Origin: Planctomycetota bacterium
GTDB lineage: Bacteria; Planctomycetota; Phycisphaerae; Phycisphaerales; SM1A02
Reading direction: 5' to 3'
Assembly (NCBI GenBank): GCA_046047595.1
Contig: JBJOHQ010000235.1
Coordinates: 1-24,338 of the forward strand
Length of the DNA: 24,338 bases
Made by a program: the position numbers and the translations under genes. How positions within the stretch are numbered: position 1 is the first letter of the stretch; the number at the start of each line of letters is the position of its first letter. Under the pieces are notes generated by a model, which made no database searches, was not told the DNA's origin, and was given only the letters and a program-made list of their open reading frames with translations. Of the stretch, positions 10,091-20,492 are shown one piece after another.

Positions 10091-11541
10091 TCCCGCAAGG
10101 TATCGCGCGGGCCGCTCGGCATTCGCCACGCCACAAAGATGCCGAAACATCCGACGATCGCCGACGCAAGAATCGCAACACCAATAGAGGTGGCAAGCGT
10201 GGCGCCCTGTGAGCGAGTGACTCCCGCGACCGTTGCCGCGAACGCGACTCCTGTGGCGCTGCCGACCTGTCGAAACGTCTGAACGATCCCTGAGATTTGG
10301 CCACGCGCTTCGTCGGGAACTCCCGAGAGCGTGTCGGTACTGGCAGGCGACATGATGAACGCAACGCCGAGTCCAAGAAGTGCCATGCCCGTTGCGATGA
10401 CGCCGTACGAAACGAGCATCGACCCAGCACCCCACGTTGCAAGCCCTGCGGTCGCGGCGAGTGTGCCGAAACGTGCGAGCGGACGAACACCAACGCGGTC
10501 GTAAAGCTTGCCCGCACGGCGCGCGACGAGAATGACGGGAATCAGCATCGGCATGAGCGACGCGCCCGCGCGTGCCGCGTTGTAGCCCAAGACCTCTTGC
10601 GCATAAATCGCTCCTTGCACCACGAGCGAAGCCATCGCGAATTGCATGATCCCGACGAGGATGACATTCGCTCGTAAGCGCGGCTCGGCAAGCAGCGCGA
10701 GCCGAACAAGCGGTTGCGCGACTCGAAACTGCCGCACGACGAAGAGTGCAGAAAGTGTGCCGCCAATGGCGAGCATCGCGAGGTAGTGCGGCTCGAACAG
10801 GCGAAGTGTGCCGACGGGAGACTCGTTCGCCGCACCTTCTTGAAGTGCATAAATCGCGAGGGGAAGTCCGAGTGCGAGGAGAAGCGCAGAAGGCACGTCA
10901 AACGATCGAGTTTCAGCGCGACGGTTGGGCGGCTTAGCCGCAAGAAGGAGCACGATCGCAGCGATTGCGATCGGAAGATTGATGAAGAAAACCCAGCGCC
11001 AACCGGCGTATTCCGCAAGGAGTCCGCCGAGTACAGGCCCAATCGCAAAGAATGACATCGAGACGCCGATGTAGATACCCATCGCGCGACCGCGCTCACC
11101 GGCGGGAAACGTTTCGATGACGAGCGCACTCGACGCGGGTTGCATCAAGCACGCGGAAAGTCCTTGCAGAACGCGTCCCGCGATGAGGAGCTCAGCCGAT
11201 GTCGCGAGCCCGCAAAGGGCACTCGCGGAGGCGAATCCCACCACGCCCGCGAGAAACGTCGAGCGCTTTCCGAAGATGTCACCGAGTCGCCCGCCGACCG
11301 CCATCGCAGCGGCAAGCGTCACGATGTAGGCATTCGCGATCCAGGCGACACCCGTGGGGCCGAGGCCGAGTTCTGCGCCAATACGCGGACCCGCGACCGC
11401 CGTGACCGTGAGGTCGACGAAGATCATCGACAGACTTCCCGTCAACGCCAGGAGGACGAGCCCGCGGCGAGGCGTGAGAGAACCGGCGGACGTCGCCGCG
11501 GGAGGGCTCACGGGATTGTCATCAGGCGCAGGCAAGGTCAC
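10087..11541 (-). CDS. MFS transporter, DHA2 (EmrB/QacA, 14-TMS) family (484 aa, GTG start)
   Basis: IFVDLTVTAVA (motif D1), GGRLGDIFGKR (motif A), GRVLQG (motif B), GPVLGGLL..GWRWVFFINLPI (motifs C/H). Confidence 0.88.
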   Translation of the reverse strand: MTLPAPDDNPVSPPAATSAGSLTPRRGLVLLALTGSLSMIFVDLTVTAVAGPRIGAELGLGPTGVAWIANAYIVTLAAAMAVGGRLGDIFGKRSTFLAGVVGFASASALCGLATSAELLIAGRVLQGLSACLMQPASSALVIETFPAGERGRAMGIYIGVSMSFFAIGPVLGGLLAEYAGWRWVFFINLPIAIAAIVLLLAAKPPNRRAETRSFDVPSALLLALGLPLAIYALQEGAANESPVGTLRLFEPHYLAMLAIGGTLSALFVVRQFRVAQPLVRLALLAEPRLRANVILVGIMQFAMASLVVQGAIYAQEVLGYNAARAGASLMPMLIPVILVARRAGKLYDRVGVRPLARFGTLAATAGLATWGAGSMLVSYGVIATGMALLGLGVAFIMSPASTDTLSGVPDEARGQISGIVQTFRQVGSATGVAFAATVAGVTRSQGATLATSIGVAILASAIVGCFGIFVAWRMPSGPRDTLRE

Positions 11542-11547
11542 CTGCGC

Positions 11548-11553
11548 AGCGTA
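11548..11553 (-). promoter_or_regulatory. Candidate -10 box TACGCT, 6 nt before GTG 11541
   Basis: cgg-TACGCT-gcgcag-GTG; divergent partner box TACAAC at 11602-11607. Confidence 0.55.
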
Positions 11554-11601
11554 CCGCAACAAATTCCGCCTTCGACGCACCCGCGTGGAACGTTGGCGCG
11601 G

Positions 11602-11607
11602 TACAAC
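11602..11607 (+). promoter_or_regulatory. Candidate -10 variant TACAAC, 6 nt before ATG 11614
   Basis: cgg-TACAAC-acccaa-ATG; last position C rather than T. Confidence 0.4.
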
Positions 11608-11613
11608 ACCCAA

Positions 11614-14094
11614 ATGCACACCGCTTCGCATGCACGTCCACTCGCGGCCTTGATCCTCTCCTCGTCGGCGCTCGCACTGTCGACTTTGGGTGTTCTCACT
11701 TCAGATGCCCACGCGCGCACGCCACAAGATGCGCCTGCCGCGGCGGCGAATGCTCCCGCCAGCGCGACTGCCGCAGAATGGCCGCAAACAGTTGTCGATG
11801 GTGGCGACTCGATCACGGTCTATCAGCCGCAATTTGAAACGCTCAACGGTGTGCAACTCACGATGACGGCGGGCGTGAGTATTCGACGCCAAGATTCCGA
11901 CGGCACGACCGCGTCAACGAACGGCGTTGCAACCATGACCGCGCAAGCGGTGGCGGGCGATGTTCCGGGCGAACTTGAGATCAACGGCATCACCTGCTCG
12001 TCTGTTGACTTCCAAGGTACGTTCGACCAAGACATGGCTGCGCGATTGACGGGCCTTCTCATAGGTGTCGGTTTCACGGTCGATCGCGGCACGCTCGTGC
12101 AAGACATGAAACTCACGAACGCGCGCGCCGCAGGAACGCCTGGACTTTCGTTCACGCCGCCGCGCTTTGTCGACTCGAATGTTCCCGCGGTGCTGATCAC
12201 GATTGATGGTCAACCGATTCTCGTTCCCGCGGGTTCGAGCGGCTGGCAGTCGGTGAAGAACACGGCATTCATCCTGCTTCGCTCGCCGGAAGGCCGTTGG
12301 TACACCGCCGTCGGCACATCGACGCTCGCAAACAGTTCGCAGCCGCCAGTGTGGATGAGCGCCGACACCCTCACGGGCAACTACGCGCTCAGCGATGCGC
12401 CGCCAGCCGATGTCGTGGCAGCGCTCGGCACAACGAAGGAAAGGCCTTCGCAACTCGACGGTCAGTCGCCCACCACATTGATGGCTTCTGCGACACCAAA
12501 GCGCATCATCGTTGCGACGGAACCAACAGTGTTGCTCGCCACCGATGGCGCGCCGCAACTTGTCGACGCGGCACCTGGCGTCCGTGAAGCAACCAACGCC
12601 AACACCGTGCTGCTCTACGTCTCGAACCCCGGCGAATGGTGGACACTGCAAGCGGGTCGTTGGTTCCACGCGGCGCCATCGAAGCCTTGGCAGTACGCGG
12701 CTCCGAGCGAGGTTCCAGCGTCGTTCTCGCAACTCGCCGCCCGCGGCCGATTGCTCGCGGCACGCGCAGCAGTCCCGGGAACAATGGAGGCAAACGCTGC
12801 TGTGGTCGCATCGAGCGAAGTTCGCACCGTGACGGTGAAGGCGGACGCCGCATGCACCGTCACGTACGCGGGCGAGCCTTCCTTCAAGCCAGCCGCCGCT
12901 TCGGGTGACGCCGCGAGCGTTGGATACGCCACGAACTCCTCGCAGCCAGTGCTCGGCGTCGGCAGCGACTTCTACTGCTGCAACGCGGGCGCGTGGTTCA
13001 TCTCAAGCTCGGCGAATGGTCCGTGGAAGGTCACGGACTCAGTCCCAAGCGCGATCTACGGCATCCCGCCATCCTGCCCTGTCTACCCCGTGACCTACGT
13101 CGAGGTCTACGGAAGCACGAAGGACCCGACAACGGGCGCGATCACGAGCGTCACCTTCGGTTTCACCTCGGGCTACCTCGGCACCTACCTCAATCAAGGC
13201 ACGCCGGTCTACGGCACGGGCTACGACTACTCGCCCGAGTCTGACACGCCTGCCGCCGCTGACACCTATCAACCCTATCCGCAGACGTACGGCTCGGACG
13301 CGCTCTACGACAACCAGACGGGCACCTACGCGCCTGGTGGCTACTCGCCCGATTACGACTACGCATCGCCACTTGTCCAGCCGTACTACCTCGACTCGGG
13401 TTGGGGCGGTTGGGGTTGGTGCCCAGGTTGGACGTGCGGTTGGGGCTGGGGCTACAACAATTGGAACGACTGGAATCACTGGTCGGGCTACTGGAACAAC
13501 TGGCATCCGTACTGGAACCAAGATTGGCACAACGATTGGCAGAACAATCAACGCCTCTACTCGAACGCCCGCGCGAACAACGCGAATGCGCAGTACTCCG
13601 CTTCGAACCCATGGGGTGAGAGCAAGGACTGGCAGAAGTGGAACGCCGCGAATGCCGCAGGCGACGAGCCGCAGAATCACGAGCCTGCCAATTGGCAGAA
13701 GTGGAACGCTGCGAGTGCCGCGGGCGACGAGCCGCAGGATCACGAGTCTGCCGATTGGCAGAAGTGGAACGCGAACAACAACCTCTACGGTCAGAACACG
13801 CAGCGTGCGGAAAATGAAGGTCGCGCTGCCTTCAACCGCAACCAGAACTACAACTGGAATCAGTATCGCGGTCAGTCGAATTACGCGAATGGCTACGGCC
13901 GCACGGGTTGGAACACGCAACCCTCTCAGAACTACAACACCCAGTACAACAACCACAACTGGAATGCGTACCCGCGCACGGGTTACAGCGGTTTCCACCC
14001 GTCGTACAACTACAACTATCGCCCAGCAGAGGGGAGCTACCGCGCGCCCGCGGCCTCGTTCCGCGGCGGCGGTTTCGGCGGGGGCCGGCGCTGA
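11614..14094 (+). CDS. Large secreted protein (826 aa): repeated beta-rich W..A....GPW-like modules plus low-complexity W/N/Q/Y tail
   Basis: Signal peptide MHTASHARPLAALILSSSALAL. WPQ..VYQPQ N-terminal block, GRWFHA, GAWFISSSANGPW, IYGIPPSCPVYPVTYV, PVYGTGY resemble a family I recall being loosely annotated as carbohydrate-binding V/XII; function unknown. Confidence 0.8.
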   Translation: MHTASHARPLAALILSSSALALSTLGVLTSDAHARTPQDAPAAAANAPASATAAEWPQTVVDGGDSITVYQPQFETLNGVQLTMTAGVSIRRQDSDGTTASTNGVATMTAQAVAGDVPGELEINGITCSSVDFQGTFDQDMAARLTGLLIGVGFTVDRGTLVQDMKLTNARAAGTPGLSFTPPRFVDSNVPAVLITIDGQPILVPAGSSGWQSVKNTAFILLRSPEGRWYTAVGTSTLANSSQPPVWMSADTLTGNYALSDAPPADVVAALGTTKERPSQLDGQSPTTLMASATPKRIIVATEPTVLLATDGAPQLVDAAPGVREATNANTVLLYVSNPGEWWTLQAGRWFHAAPSKPWQYAAPSEVPASFSQLAARGRLLAARAAVPGTMEANAAVVASSEVRTVTVKADAACTVTYAGEPSFKPAAASGDAASVGYATNSSQPVLGVGSDFYCCNAGAWFISSSANGPWKVTDSVPSAIYGIPPSCPVYPVTYVEVYGSTKDPTTGAITSVTFGFTSGYLGTYLNQGTPVYGTGYDYSPESDTPAAADTYQPYPQTYGSDALYDNQTGTYAPGGYSPDYDYASPLVQPYYLDSGWGGWGWCPGWTCGWGWGYNNWNDWNHWSGYWNNWHPYWNQDWHNDWQNNQRLYSNARANNANAQYSASNPWGESKDWQKWNAANAAGDEPQNHEPANWQKWNAASAAGDEPQDHESADWQKWNANNNLYGQNTQRAENEGRAAFNRNQNYNWNQYRGQSNYANGYGRTGWNTQPSQNYNTQYNNHNWNAYPRTGYSGFHPSYNYNYRPAEGSYRAPAASFRGGGFGGGRR
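13627..13772 (+). repeat. 63-bp (21-aa) tandem repeat, about 2.3 copies
   Basis: TGGCAGAAGTGGAACGC at 13630, 13693 and 13756; WQKWNAANAAGDEPQNHEPAN / WQKWNAASAAGDEPQDHESAD / WQKWNA. Confidence 0.95.
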
Positions 14095-15875: not shown

Positions 15876-16148
15876 TCACGCGCTGTGCGCGGTCGGCGCG
15901 TGCCCGCACTCGCGCAGGAACCGACGGATCGCAGAGATCTCGTGGTCCGACTGCAACGTGTGGCCGCCACCGTGCGGGATCTTGAACGTCATCTCGTGAG
16001 GGCCAAACCTGACCTTCAGGTGATCGTGCTTGGTTTCCTCCGTCGTAGCCCCTAGCGACTCAAACATGTGGACGATGTCGCGCCAATGGATGTTGTGCGT
16101 GGTGGGGTGGGCGAAGAGTTGCTCAAGCGTGCGTTGATGGTTCGACAT
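15876..16148 (-). CDS. hicA: HicA-like mRNA interferase fold protein, His-rich, no adjacent hicB (90 aa)
   Basis: GAGGAG SD. FESLG..HLKVRF..IPH aligns with E. coli HicA LESQG..HLKLRF..MPRH (recalled), keeping the His23 equivalent; 13 His in 90 aa. Confidence 0.65.
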   Translation of the reverse strand: MSNHQRTLEQLFAHPTTHNIHWRDIVHMFESLGATTEETKHDHLKVRFGPHEMTFKIPHGGGHTLQSDHEISAIRRFLRECGHAPTAHSA

Positions 16149-16413: not shown

Positions 16414-16457
16414 AAAAAGGAACCGCGGGCGACGGTGGTGGCCGTCGCCCGCGGGTT
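16414..16457 (-). terminator. Intrinsic terminator of the EF-hand/b562 gene
   Basis: 13-bp perfect stem CCGCGGGCGACGG (16423-16435 / 16442-16454), 6-nt loop, then GTTCCTTTTT on the minus strand. Confidence 0.75.
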
Positions 16458-16502: not shown

Positions 16503-17417
16503 TCACTCTGCTGCTGGTGGACGGTTCGCGCGACCACCACGGCCACGCGGACGGTCGCCTGCGGCATCACCCTCTGCAGCACCGCCGCCGGCAGGAGCAG
16601 CCGATTCGCCGCCCTCATCGTTTTGGAAGAGCGCGTGTCCCGACTCCTCCGATTGGTGGAGCTTCTCAAGCGCAGCCTTTGCAGCCGCGGTGTCGCCCGC
16701 GAGGATCGCGTTCTCGATTTCAAACGCAGTCATGATCGACGCGATGATCGCCTTTCGGAAGTCGCGCTCATACGCGGCCTTGTCGTCGCCGAACTTCGCC
16801 TTCGCAGCCTCAGACATCGGAATCGATGCGATCGCGCCCTTCGAAGCGACGAGGCCCATTTGCAGGCGCTGCACCGCGTCGAGGTCGTTCTTCTGCGTCG
16901 AAGCGTCCAACGCAGAACCGCGCAGCGCACGGAACGCGCCGTTTGCTTGCTTCATTGAAGCTTCCATGTTGGGGGCACCGCCAGCGGCGCCGCCGCGGCC
17001 TTGACCGCCTTGGCCACCTTGGCCACCTTGACCGCCCATGCCGCGAAGTGCTCCGCCTTCCTTCGCGATGACTTCGAGCTCAGTGCGCTCGACAAAGCCG
17101 TCCTTGTTGGTGTCGGCGCGTTCGAAGATGCGCTCCACGAGCATCGCAGGCATTTCGTCGCGCGAGAGCTTGCCGTCGCCGTTCTGATCCATACCCATCA
17201 GGCGCTCAACCATTTGTGCGGGGTCGACTTGGCCGCCGCGCATACCAGGGCGCTGGCCGTCCTGTCCTGGTTGACCCGGCTGGCCTGGTTGATTTGGTGC
17301 ACCCTGATTTCGGCCGCCCTGATTTCCGCCGGGCGGGAACGTGCCGTCTTGCTGAGCGAGTGCGAGCGATGAGAGCGAAAGCGCGAGAAGTCCGGTGAGA
17401 ATGCGAGTGTGCTGCAT
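16503..17417 (-). CDS. Secreted EF-hand pair + cytochrome b562-like four-helix bundle fusion (304 aa)
   Basis: Signal peptide MQHTRILTGLLALSLSSLALAQ and G/Q/P linkers. EF loops DQNGDGKLSRDE and DTNKDGFVERTE. C-domain with Met (MEASMKQ) and His (SEESGHALF) at the b562 ligand positions. Confidence 0.8.
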   Translation of the reverse strand: MQHTRILTGLLALSLSSLALAQQDGTFPPGGNQGGRNQGAPNQPGQPGQPGQDGQRPGMRGGQVDPAQMVERLMGMDQNGDGKLSRDEMPAMLVERIFERADTNKDGFVERTELEVIAKEGGALRGMGGQGGQGGQGGQGRGGAAGGAPNMEASMKQANGAFRALRGSALDASTQKNDLDAVQRLQMGLVASKGAIASIPMSEAAKAKFGDDKAAYERDFRKAIIASIMTAFEIENAILAGDTAAAKAALEKLHQSEESGHALFQNDEGGESAAPAGGGAAEGDAAGDRPRGRGGRANRPPAAE

Positions 17418-17602
17418 GGTGCGCGGCTTGGGGCCGACTCCGAGATGGGGCCGCGTACGCGGCGGGGTAGAGGGATCCAATCGGACGTGTGTCGAGAGAC
17501 ACGTCGCTTCGTCGAGATTGGTTGTCGCCGCGATCAGGCGATCCTGAAGAAGCGCGGCGAAGGTGAACGCTCCGCATCGGCAGTTCATTGCGCATTCGTG
17601 TC

Positions 17603-17634
17603 AAAAAACCGCCCACCCCGCGAAGGGTGGGCGG
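17603..17634 (-). terminator. Intrinsic terminator of the diheme protein gene
   Basis: 10-bp stem CCGCCCACCC/GGGTGGGCGG, 6-nt loop, followed by TTTTTT on the minus strand. Confidence 0.85.
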
Positions 17635-17681
17635 CGAAGAACACGAAAGTGGTGCAAACTCAGGATCGAGGCGAAGTCAGG

Positions 17682-20423
17682 TTACGGGCACGCGCCCCAT
17701 GCTCCGAGAAGGATGGCAAGGTCGGCGGCGTCGGTCGTGCCGCTGCCGTCAATGTCGGTGACGCCCGCGGTTCCCCAGCCCGAGAGGAGCGCCGCAAGAT
17801 CGCCACCGTTCACGATGCCATCTGGTGTCGCGGGCGAGATGTCGCCCACGCATGCGCCGGGGACGCTCGACGCATCAGCCGGATCGCTGCCCGCGTCGAG
17901 TTCATCGCGATCGAAGAAGCCGTCGAGATCGCGGTCGATACCGAGTCGCGTCTGCGAGCCCGCGGGCACGAGCGTGTAGGTGAGTTCGCTGCCACTCGCC
18001 GCGAGCGCGAGAAGCGCTGCCGGCGAAAGCGTCGGCTCATCTGCGCGATCGGGGCGGAAGGAGCCCGCGACGAGCATCCAGCCGCGCGCTTCACCATTGA
18101 CGCGACCCTTCACGATGAGCCCGAGGCCGCCAGGGGCGCTTGCAATCGTGATGAACTGATTGATACGGGCAGTGTCATTCGCAACGCCTGTGGCTGTCGT
18201 CTGCTGACCGACACCCGCGTGCGTACCTGAATTGAACGACATGCAGAACGCTTCCATATCGCGGCGTTGTTGTTGGCCCGTTGGATTATTCGCGAAGGTG
18301 AAGCCTGTCGTGATCGAGTCTTGGAACGTGAACTTCTCGCCGTTGTGTTCGAAGCCGAAGCCGCGCAACGCCGTCGTCGACGTGTTGCTCGCGCCAACTT
18401 TGCGCCAGAGTTCGCGCAAGTGCGCGTTCTTGCGATTCTGGTTCTCGCCGCCTGGAGCTGGAATATCAACACGGTTGTTCGAGCCGATCGCGCCCGCGTG
18501 GCAAGAGATGCAGGTGAGGCCGGGCGTGCCCGGAGGACCAGCGAAGAACTGACCAGTGTTGAAGAGATTCTGGCCCGTCACCGCGTTGCCCGTCACGTTG
18601 AAACCCGTCTGCGTACCACCAAAGATTGCAACCGACGTGCGAAGCGTGTTGTCGATGTTGCGGTTTGGATTTGGCGGGAAGACGAGCGACGCGAGGTAGT
18701 TCTGGAGCGACGACATTTCTGCTGGAGAAATCTCGCTTCCGCGGCCTTGCAAGTGTGTGAACGCGACGTTGAACTCGCTGAGATCATCTTTCTCGCCGCG
18801 CCAGTGGAAGGGCTCGTTCCCGATGATGCCTTGCAAGGTTTGCGTCGTCATCGGGCCCTTCATCGGGTGCCACGAAATGCACGCGCCTGGTGCCGCGACT
18901 TGGCAAACCTCGTCAAACGCTTCGACGACGCCCGTCGGATCACCAAGGTCCCACGCGAGTCGATCGCTGCGACCATCGATGTGACAGGTCGCACACGAAA
19001 CGTGACCGAGGCCCGACGTGAGATTCGTATCGAAGAGGAATTTGCGTCCCGCGCGCACAGTGGCGGGGGTTGCGTCGTGGAAGGTCGAACGCGCGACTTC
19101 ACTCGCACCCGCAGTCGAAACAGCGCTCACCGAGCCTTCGAAACGATTGAGCGTGTAGACGAACTGGCCGTTCGGCGACATCACGATGCCGCTTGGACCT
19201 TCGCCGACGCCAATCTTTGCCAGGCGCGCGCCCGAGGGCGACATCGCGATGATGCAGTTCGTCCCAAGCGATGCGACGTACGCGGCGCTTGAGTCGGGCA
19301 TCCACGCCACGCCGCGCGGATCGCCGATCGATTGGAAACGCTCAAGTTCAGGAATCGAACTCGACGCGTAGGTGAGGTGCGGGTTGAGATCGCGCACAAC
19401 AGGCGCGGTTCCGCCCGGACCTGTGAACGCGCCGACCATCTTGGCAAAGACGCCGTCGAGTTTCGGCTCGAAGCGAATCTCGTTGCGCGCTTCGATACCA
19501 ACCGCAAGCACGGTGCCGTTCGGCGCAACGCCGATACCCGCAACGCAACTCATCAGGCTCGGCACGTAGCTCGTGGAAAGGCTCGCCGCATCGATCACGG
19601 CGATGTCGTTGTCCACAACGTCCCATGTCACGAGGTTCGACCAGTTGCGGTTGTTGTCGTCGATCCATTGGCCGAGCGCGTTCTTTCGCACGATGTGCGC
19701 GACGCGCGGCGGGAGCGGTTGTCCCGCGGTGCGCGGCGGATCGAAGGCGTTGCCAGAGTTCGGTGGCGGATTGACGCCGTTGTAGGGGCTCGCGGGGCTA
19801 TTCACGGAAGCGCGTGGGACGATCGTCGATCGATTGCCTGACTCAAAGATCGCGAGGTAGACCGTACGACCATCGGGGCTTGTCGCGAGTGCGCGCGGCG
19901 AAGCACCGGCGATGGTGGTCGTGGTGAGCGTCGGCGCGGCGGCTGCGGGATCAAACGAAACGACGCGCGAAGACATCGCAAGCGACACAAAGGCGCGCGC
20001 GGGTTTCGAGGTGAAGACGATGTCTGCGGGTTCGTCACCAACGAGGATCGTGCGTGTAACGCGCATCGTGGCGAGGTCGACAACGCTGACCGAGTCAGAG
20101 ATTTGATTGACAACCCATGCTTCGCCATTCGAGCGCGCGCGGACCGAGACGGGATCCACGCCGACCGCGACCGAGCCGCGCCGCACGGGGAGGCCGCCGA
20201 CCAAGTCGAAGACCTCGAGCTGACCGTCTGCTGTGTTGACAGCGAGGAGCGCCGAACCGTCGGGTGTCACCTCAATCGGGTGGGTCTGTGGCGACTCGAA
20301 GTTTGTGAAGTTTCCCGTCTGCGCGAGAGCGACCGATGCGGTGAGCAGGCTGAGGGCCGCGCCCACGAGGGCGGATGACGGGGAAGCGGGACGGATGGGG
20401 CGTGGGGCTCGAGGCATGGCCAT
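17682..20423 (-). CDS. Secreted YncE/YVTN beta-propeller + diheme cytochrome c peroxidase/MauG-like domain + dockerin-like tail (about 913 aa)
   Basis: Signal peptide ending ASVALAQ; propeller blades (VTPDG..LLAVN, VGVDPVSV, VGDEP, VGEGPSG). CATCH at 18981-18995 and CISCH at 18498-18512; DRDLDGFFDRDE Ca-type loop; C-terminal DG.VNGGDLAALLSGWG..DIDGSG..DAADLAILLGAWG. Confidence 0.85.
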   Translation of the reverse strand: MAMPRAPRPIRPASPSSALVGAALSLLTASVALAQTGNFTNFESPQTHPIEVTPDGSALLAVNTADGQLEVFDLVGGLPVRRGSVAVGVDPVSVRARSNGEAWVVNQISDSVSVVDLATMRVTRTILVGDEPADIVFTSKPARAFVSLAMSSRVVSFDPAAAAPTLTTTTIAGASPRALATSPDGRTVYLAIFESGNRSTIVPRASVNSPASPYNGVNPPPNSGNAFDPPRTAGQPLPPRVAHIVRKNALGQWIDDNNRNWSNLVTWDVVDNDIAVIDAASLSTSYVPSLMSCVAGIGVAPNGTVLAVGIEARNEIRFEPKLDGVFAKMVGAFTGPGGTAPVVRDLNPHLTYASSSIPELERFQSIGDPRGVAWMPDSSAAYVASLGTNCIIAMSPSGARLAKIGVGEGPSGIVMSPNGQFVYTLNRFEGSVSAVSTAGASEVARSTFHDATPATVRAGRKFLFDTNLTSGLGHVSCATCHIDGRSDRLAWDLGDPTGVVEAFDEVCQVAAPGACISWHPMKGPMTTQTLQGIIGNEPFHWRGEKDDLSEFNVAFTHLQGRGSEISPAEMSSLQNYLASLVFPPNPNRNIDNTLRTSVAIFGGTQTGFNVTGNAVTGQNLFNTGQFFAGPPGTPGLTCISCHAGAIGSNNRVDIPAPGGENQNRKNAHLRELWRKVGASNTSTTALRGFGFEHNGEKFTFQDSITTGFTFANNPTGQQQRRDMEAFCMSFNSGTHAGVGQQTTATGVANDTARINQFITIASAPGGLGLIVKGRVNGEARGWMLVAGSFRPDRADEPTLSPAALLALAASGSELTYTLVPAGSQTRLGIDRDLDGFFDRDELDAGSDPADASSVPGACVGDISPATPDGIVNGGDLAALLSGWGTAGVTDIDGSGTTDAADLAILLGAWGACP

Positions 20424-20492
20424 CGTTGGAAGATGCCTCGCAAACGGGGACACGCAAAGTTTGCGATCTTTCTAGGTTCTCGATGTCACGAA

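Follow-up and report, generated by a model that had tools for sequence, protein, structure and literature searches.

What does a planctomycete protein do in which an EF-hand pair appears to be joined to a relative of cytochrome b562, a protein used very widely as a model and in engineering, as in BRIL fusions and designed metalloproteins? To our knowledge the natural role and diversity of b562 are still poorly known, and a gene on a contig from a freshwater metagenome brings the two modules together in a single exported polypeptide. The 24,338 nucleotides of this contig, analyzed as a whole, are referred to below as the window. A reading made from the letters alone (hereafter the sequence-only reading) had suggested that the product could be a Ca2+-gated periplasmic electron or heme carrier and had named an adjacent diheme gene as the source of a plausible redox partner. 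Here we follow this proposal through profile searches, structure prediction, residue conservation and comparison of gene neighborhoods.

The gene and the layout of its product

The gene (P0001) occupies positions 16503..17417 of the (-) strand, on which all the features described below also lie. It consists of 304 codons plus a stop, with the ATG at 17417 and the stop codon at 16505-16503, and its translation yields a 304 aa protein that is free of cysteine and hence of any CxxCH motif. A longer open reading frame beginning with an ATG at 17588 (361 aa) was dismissed, as nearly all the aligned homologues start at MQHTR. Since these homologues begin with MQHTR and continue with a hydrophobic core and ALA-QQ, we take 17417 to be the true start; the same start and architecture recur in more than 165 homologues of P0001.

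Residues 1-21 (17355..17417) form a Sec-type signal peptide with MQHTR, a hydrophobic core and a predicted cleavage site in ALA-QQ, a layout that we read by eye from the sequence and that is common to 32/32 aligned homologues. Next come a QDGTFPP motif and a disordered linker rich in G, Q and P (residues 22-64; 17226..17354; pLDDT <50), and in the region of this motif Q23, D24, G25, P28 and P29 are invariant or near-invariant in the homologue alignment. An EF-hand pair (residues 65-120; 17058..17225) is separated by a low-complexity linker of GGQ repeats (residues 121-149; 16971..17057; pLDDT 41-56) from a four-helix bundle resembling cytochrome b562 (residues 150-265; 16623..16970). The GGQ linker varies in length and sequence, and in the fusion representatives the second EF hand lies between 5 and 67 residues (median 28.5) from the bundle. 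The protein ends in an acidic, Gly-rich stretch and a basic RGG tail, RPRGRGGRANRPPAAE (residues 266-304; 16506..16622; pLDDT <50), which is kept in close homologues and variable across the wider family. As the low-complexity linkers have pLDDT <50 and the pTM is 0.48, the AlphaFold2 model offers no confident arrangement of the domains relative to each other. The order of modules given in the sequence-only reading, along with its reading frame, strand and coordinates, thus stands in full.

A probable b562-type heme domain

The Pfam profile Cytochrom_B562 (PF07361) aligns with the C-terminal domain end to end, residues 151-264 corresponding to profile positions 2-101 of 102. The scores of 19.4 bits (E 1.6e-3) for the whole protein and 22.8 bits (E 1.4e-4) for the domain alone lie under the curated cut-off of 30, and the query itself thus stays below the membership threshold despite the complete alignment. 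All the 32 diverse members of our family alignment match PF07361 (32/32, best E 2.9e-7). When 1.84 billion representatives clustered at 50% identity were searched with a domain profile (A2), 948 of them were recovered at E ≤1e-3 and 263 at E ≤1e-10, among them the proteins P0344 (E 4e-20) and P0386 (E 5.5e-14), which pass the PF07361 cut-off with 60.7 and 36.7 bits respectively. Since the query lies below 30 bits and these profile-reached relatives lie above, the window's domain, as judged from the profiles, joins PF07361 by transitive homology only.

Direct comparisons yielded less. Neither BLASTP nor hhalign gave a significant match to E. coli K-12 cybC (L007:14536-14853), and an hhalign comparison of the domain alignment (144 rows) with 120 close b562 relatives from enterobacteria, which form a shallow set (>82% identity, Neff 1.4), produced an insignificant match that was out of register. 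A phmmer search with the domain and an hmmsearch with the family profile against the PDB sequences recovered no b562 chain, the matches being chance ones (Cas2, PezT, PPIase). The clusters closest to residues 146-268 in language-model features, used here as a lead only, are labeled 'cytochrome b562 family' (scores 0.89/0.86/0.86).

The predicted structure speaks for the same family. AlphaFold2 models residues 150-265 with a pLDDT of 90-98 as four long helices, with an additional short helix in the connection between helices 2 and 3. The best 50 Foldseek matches in the PDB are all b562-derived chains, with a target TM-score of up to 0.83 over about 116 alignment columns against the 106-residue b562. 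BRIL fusions are so numerous in the PDB that we repeated the structure search without Foldseek, using VIA on a redundancy-reduced set of one PDB chain per 40% cluster. The top matches (Z 13-14) are b562 and BRIL chains together with NaxLS (6r6n), followed by cytochrome c' (Z 11-12) and PsbQ-type bundles. Since the arrangement of the helices alone can lift such bundles to a Z of about 13, we treat the fold match as supportive rather than decisive. The model, Foldseek and VIA nonetheless agree on the up-down four-helix bundle of about 106 residues that typifies the b562 family, as the sequence-only reading had expected of this domain.

Two residues of the bundle are predicted to be the axial heme ligands, namely M155 (codon 16955-16953) at the start of helix 1 and H261 (codon 16637-16635) at the end of helix 4. 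Residues 2-106 of E. coli b562 correspond to PF07361 positions 1-102, and via these coordinates residue 151 is equivalent to Leu3, M155 to Met7, H261 to His102 and F264 to Tyr105. Foldseek aligns residues 151-265 of the query with residues 25-128 of the E. coli b562 precursor, which, given the 22-residue signal peptide of the E. coli protein, is the same mapping as that from Pfam. The two gap-free segments that the sequence-only reading had aligned with b562 agree with this as well, their offsets of 148 and 159 differing by just the 11 residues by which the connection between helices 2 and 3 is longer. The resemblance noted there is thus real, with PF07361 covering the domain end to end and Foldseek giving the same residue mapping.

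To examine conservation we used hmmalign to align 143 domain representatives (≤50% identity; fused and stand-alone forms) together with the query. The Met (143/143) and the His (144/144) are the sole invariant positions of the domain, a pattern beyond what chance would give, and the next most conserved are E235 (141), K193 (140), L179 (135) and R221 (131). The equivalent of Tyr105, F264, is F in 121/144 rows and Y in 7, and the positions matching b562 F61 and Y105 both keep their hydrophobic and aromatic character in the window's protein (F220 and F264). If the topology is that of b562, M155, K193, F220/R221, H261 and F264 would cluster at the heme end of the bundle. The placement of Met and His at the Met7 and His102 positions is therefore borne out by the Pfam coordinates, the Foldseek range and their invariance. 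This invariance is the strongest argument for the predicted b562-like binding of heme, and the complete lack of Cys, and with it of CxxCH, fits the b-type heme proposed earlier. We consider the domain, with good confidence, to be a b562-type heme domain.

Compared with E. coli cytochrome b562 (CybC; PF07361; PDB 256B), the window's domain shares Sec export, the absence of CxxCH, an up-down four-helix bundle of about 105-115 residues (target TM-score 0.81-0.83), the helix 1 Met and the His near the end of helix 4 at equivalent positions, a DFR motif and a turn glycine (G241 = G82). It differs in a structure-based identity of only about 15-17%, with a Pfam score below the cut-off, and in a connection between helices 2 and 3 that is longer by 11 residues and carries the extra short helix (203-209). 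Arg98 and Tyr101 of the E. coli protein are replaced by Glu and Gly. Unlike its counterpart, moreover, the window's domain is fused to an EF pair, long low-complexity linkers and a basic tail, and its host is a freshwater planctomycete rather than an enterobacterium.

We also considered whether the bundle might instead be a cytochrome c' (PF01322), an identity that we rejected given the lack of Cys and CxxCH, the weak matches in 3/32 members of the alignment (best E 0.029) and the lower Z.

A conserved EF-hand pair

The EF-hand pair comprises two loops, D77-E88 (17189-17154) and D102-E113 (17114-17079), that both have the canonical form of 12 residues with D1, D/N3, D5, G6, a hydrophobic residue at position 8 and E12, at exactly the coordinates reported in the sequence-only reading. 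Three Pfam models score above their cut-offs, namely EF-hand_1 (PF00036; 34.7 bits vs 25.4), EF-hand_5 (PF13202; 34.4 vs 25.9) and EF-hand_6 (PF13405; 33.5 vs 25), and the pair model EF-hand_7 falls slightly short (28.8 vs 30). In the AlphaFold2 model the region (pLDDT 81-89) folds twice as a helix-loop-helix, with helices at 66-74, 91-101 and 111-119, and short paired strands (83-85 and 108-110) link the loops. Among 72 fusion representatives (≤50% identity) Asp1 and Glu12 are retained in both loops in 72/72, Gly6 in 72/72 for loop 1 and 64/72 for loop 2, and the loop starts lie 24-25 residues apart. We are highly confident that the pair is a functional metal-binding module, and the intact ligand positions suggest that it most likely binds two Ca2+.

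In its spacing the pair resembles other compact bacterial EF pairs (EF-hand_5/PF13202; lanmodulin-like spacing), with two DxNxDG...E loops of 12 residues and 13 residues between them. The NCBIfam models for XopAW and lanmodulin match residues 73-117 weakly, with 18-23 bits vs cut-offs of 120-135. The lanmodulin model (NF053806) gives 18.2 bits vs 135, and the window's protein has two loops instead of four and lacks the prolines at loop position 2 that we take to be a hallmark of lanmodulin. With scores so far below the cut-offs, membership in either family was dismissed.

Distribution and history of the fusion

The fusion is not rare: 74 of the best 150 domain representatives (of the 948), about half, have one or two canonical EF loops ahead of the domain, and the remaining 76, some of which are fragments, have none. 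The fusion is spread over a large, mainly Planctomycetota clade. In a maximum-likelihood tree of 130 domains, which has few columns and unsettled bootstrap values and is safe for the broad picture only, the fusion state is clustered, requiring 10 changes vs a mean of 42 for shuffled labels, with 0/500 shuffles as low. A split with 98/84 support separates 34 stand-alone and 3 fused rows from 71 fused and 22 stand-alone rows. Stand-alone forms are nested among the fusions, and the well-supported branches force at least 6 gains or losses of the EF pair. This pattern suggests that the fusion is old, mostly kept and repeatedly lost or regained; the cytochrome domain can evidently work without the EF pair.

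Among 201 sampled Planctomycetota genomes the domain was found in 23. Three genomes of the same order as the window's host have stand-alone forms, one of which (L024) also has a stretch rich in His and acidic residues and probably a membrane anchor. The source names of the family members are all 'hypothetical protein', and in the atlas the clusters of the full-length protein bear EF-hand family labels only. As its members score just under the Pfam cut-off, standard annotation largely misses this b562-type family, which with 948 representatives (50% identity, E ≤1e-3) is a large one outside the enterobacteria.

Full-text literature searches returned no paper describing an EF-hand/b562 fusion, in agreement with the sequence-only reading, which knew of none. 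The fusion is a recombination of two known modules that is widespread and appears in no paper of the literature searched, and not a new kind of system. Its interest lies in a b562-type domain to which, in a large planctomycete clade, a calcium-binding module is permanently attached, and in the natural variants that the family offers for studying b562 function, the tolerance of the heme pocket and possible metal-dependent docking.

Proposed function and its alternatives

We propose that the protein is exported by the Sec pathway and resembles beads on a string, with the C-terminal bundle being a divergent member of the cytochrome b562 family. This bundle would hold one non-covalent heme b between Met155 and His261 and would carry single electrons in the periplasm as a small soluble protein, as other His/Met cytochromes do, with an electron partner that is not encoded alongside it in any conserved manner. 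The EF pair would bind two Ca2+, with which it is probably loaded permanently in the Ca-containing extracytoplasmic space, and would act as an accessory structural or docking module on a flexible tether instead of as an allosteric switch on the heme. On balance we lean toward this reading as a whole, in which we deduce the binding of heme and Ca2+, the carrying of electrons and an accessory function for the EF pair. For the electron carrier as against another role of the heme our preference is a similarly slight one: no physiological role has been established even for b562 of E. coli, and the carrier assignment therefore rests on analogy.

Gating, as suggested in the sequence-only reading, would mean that Ca2+ bound to the EF pair alters the contact of the pair with the b562 domain and so switches the redox potential, heme affinity, partner docking or oligomerization of the cytochrome, which would couple electron flow to external calcium. 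The two modules have indeed been kept together over a deeply diverged clade (71/93 rows on one side of the 98/84 split), the EF loops are under strong constraint, and EF hands regulate heme enzymes elsewhere, as in NOX5/DUOX. If Ca2+ control of this kind were true, the planctomycete clade would tune a periplasmic electron route to external calcium, and the system would provide a first physiological handle on the purpose of b562-type cytochromes. However, the modules are joined here by about 25 residues of low-complexity sequence modeled with low confidence (pLDDT <50, pTM 0.48), the distance from the second EF hand to the bundle varies over 5-67 residues across the family, and the domain tree calls for at least 6 losses or gains of the EF pair. 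Extracytoplasmic Ca2+ is, moreover, usually far above the dissociation constants of EF hands. The variable, disordered linkers, the lack of predicted packing between the domains and the dispensability of the EF pair in many lineages make gating less likely, and we regard it as improbable.

Similarly improbable in our estimate is a role in heme handling, in which the protein would be a periplasmic heme buffer, chaperone or scavenger with the EF pair or the basic tail anchoring it to the envelope. Such a role would accord with the non-covalent and reversible binding of heme by b562, with the long tethers and basic RGG tail, which could attach to anionic envelope polymers, and with the absence of an encoded redox partner nearby. 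Yet His/Met ligation is typical of electron-transfer cytochromes and not of heme carriers, and the five gene contexts examined showed no genes for heme uptake or of the TonB type.

Gene neighborhood and transcription

The gene upstream of the fusion gene (17682-20453, also on the (-) strand) encodes a 923-aa protein with a beta-propeller, two CxxCH motifs, a sub-threshold match to CCP_MauG and a dockerin-like tail, and the downstream gene encodes a His-rich protein of 90 aa with no Pfam family. Each of the three genes is followed on its 3' side by a terminator-like hairpin. The one behind the fusion gene (16423..16454) has a 13-bp stem with 12 GC pairs and a T-rich tail, and another (17608..17635) lies between the 923-aa gene and the fusion gene, where the sequence-only reading had placed a terminator.

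That reading further saw in the secreted diheme protein a plausible redox partner, and a dedicated one would give electrons to, or take them from, this beta-propeller/CCP-MauG-like enzyme. The same-strand adjacency found here recurs in L005 and L006, where the whole trio is present, and the two CxxCH motifs and weak CCP_MauG match of the neighbor also speak for the proposal. But the neighborhoods of both L005 and L006 are collinear throughout with that of the window, and in L005 the fusion protein is 53% and the 923-aa neighbor 70% identical. L020 is collinear too (patatin, Na/sulfate symporter, fasciclin and GT61 flanks) and lacks both neighbor genes, and the contexts in L021, L022 and the P0119 contig are unrelated. 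Among the 201 genomes of the phylum, 23 have the domain, 48 a homologue of the 923-aa protein and 0 the two adjacent, and three genomes of the same order have the domain and no homologue of the 923-aa protein. Adjacency is thus confined to closely collinear relatives. In one aquatic metatranscriptome, contigs that are 90-95% identical to the window cover 16849-17427 only and none of the flanking genes; these are short assembler contigs from a relative, and they fit an orthologue that is transcribed separately and at an appreciable level. The intervening hairpins, the erratic gene contexts and the restricted transcript contigs all argue against a dedicated partnership, for which these genomes offer no comparative support and which we consider unlikely, marginally more so than the two alternatives above. 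A functional operon with the 923-aa diheme and 90-aa His-rich genes was likewise rejected in view of the terminators and the unconserved adjacency, and the fusion gene is likely a monocistronic unit.

It is just as unlikely that the bundle is no heme protein at all and is instead a structural or metal-binding scaffold resembling b562, with Met and His serving, e.g., Cu or Zn: this would fit the sub-threshold PF07361 score, the insignificant direct comparison with E. coli b562, the high Z that helical bundles attain through arrangement alone and the His-rich stretches of some relatives, which are suggestive of metal binding, but the invariant residues are exactly the two b562 ligand positions, the transitive profile link leads to members above the Pfam cut-off, and aromatics still occupy the positions of b562 F61 and Y105.

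Related four-helix proteins

The periplasmic electron carrier that we favor may be set beside two further kinds of four-helix protein. NaxLS from the anammox planctomycete Kuenenia (6r6n) is, like the window's domain, a small four-helix heme protein, comes from the same phylum and matches with Z 13.6 and an rmsd of 2.1 Å over 104/111 residues. Unlike the Cys-free protein of the window, it is a c-type cytochrome, and since the structure deposited is that of a Cys-to-Met mutant, the native protein would have Cys ligation; it has no EF hands and shows no sequence-level match to the window's family.

The stand-alone b562-family proteins of planctomycetes and verrucomicrobia (e.g. P0386, P0344 and L026:6105-6569) are closer. 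They have the same domain, with E down to 1e-20, and the invariant Met and His, they are exported, and some of them lie above the PF07361 cut-off. They differ from the window's protein in lacking the EF pair and in elaborations of their own, such as the His/acidic-rich stretch and probable membrane anchor of L024 and the two tandem b562 domains of P0344. The 'cytochrome b562 family' clusters nearest to the window's domain in language-model features come from Verrucomicrobiota, Planctomycetota and Pseudomonadota.

Architectures of the b562-like domain and conserved termini of the fusion protein

The b562-like domain of the EF-hand fusion protein (window 16503-17417, minus strand) recurs in other architectural settings. 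A genome of the same order, Phycisphaerales, encodes a stand-alone b562-like protein (L024:6216-6977, minus strand), whose domain lies behind both a stretch rich in His, Asp and Glu (HGHGEHAGEGGHDDEHGHEDGHHGEEHHDD) and what is probably a membrane anchor; the position of the EF pair is therefore taken by a different metal-binding appendage. The metagenomic representative P0344 (344 residues) contains two tandem b562 domains and matches Pfam PF07361 with 60.7 bits, above the curated cut-off of 30 bits, so the family includes di-domain proteins as well. In a second metagenomic representative, P0113 (305 residues), an EF pair precedes a b562-like domain that is truncated (profile positions 2-100), and the region after this domain gives a VCBS/FG-GAP-type Pfam match (PF13517); this protein may be an additional fusion or an assembly chimera.

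Examination of the termini revealed that the mature N-terminus of the fusion protein, QDGTFPP (residues 22-28; window 17334-17354, minus strand), is almost unchanged in homologues down to 45% identity, despite the otherwise disordered linker around it. At the opposite end, Arg/Gly-rich C-terminal tails are present on two exported proteins of the window, namely the fusion protein (RPRGRGGRANRPPAAE; 16506-16622, minus strand) and the product of 11140-14094 on the plus strand (FRGGGFGGGRR). Many family members likewise have RGG-like or strongly acidic low-complexity C-terminal ends, and such tails may represent a lineage-specific envelope-attachment or sorting feature.

Expression and gene neighborhood

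Contigs from an aquatic metatranscriptome (run X8) match window 16849-17427 with 90-95% identity. Since they cover the fusion gene alone and none of the 4.9-kb flanks, they suggest that the orthologue in a relative is expressed separately and at a comparatively high level.

A 90-residue His-rich protein (15876-16148, minus strand), for which Pfam recovered no family, has its own terminator-like hairpin (15741-15714). It shares 73% identity with the product of the same-position gene in relative L005; the gene is also present in L006 and missing from L020, though the latter locus is otherwise collinear.

The 923-residue exported protein encoded beside the fusion gene (17682-20453, minus strand) has a lactonase/YncE-like beta-propeller at its N-terminus, a dockerin-like repeat at its C-terminus and a pair of CxxCH motifs; its CCP_MauG match is sub-threshold (24.0 versus 25.6 bits). 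Homologues were recovered in 48 of the 201 sampled Planctomycetota genomes, frequently in multiple copies, and the genome to which the window belongs carries a partial paralogue on contig C236.
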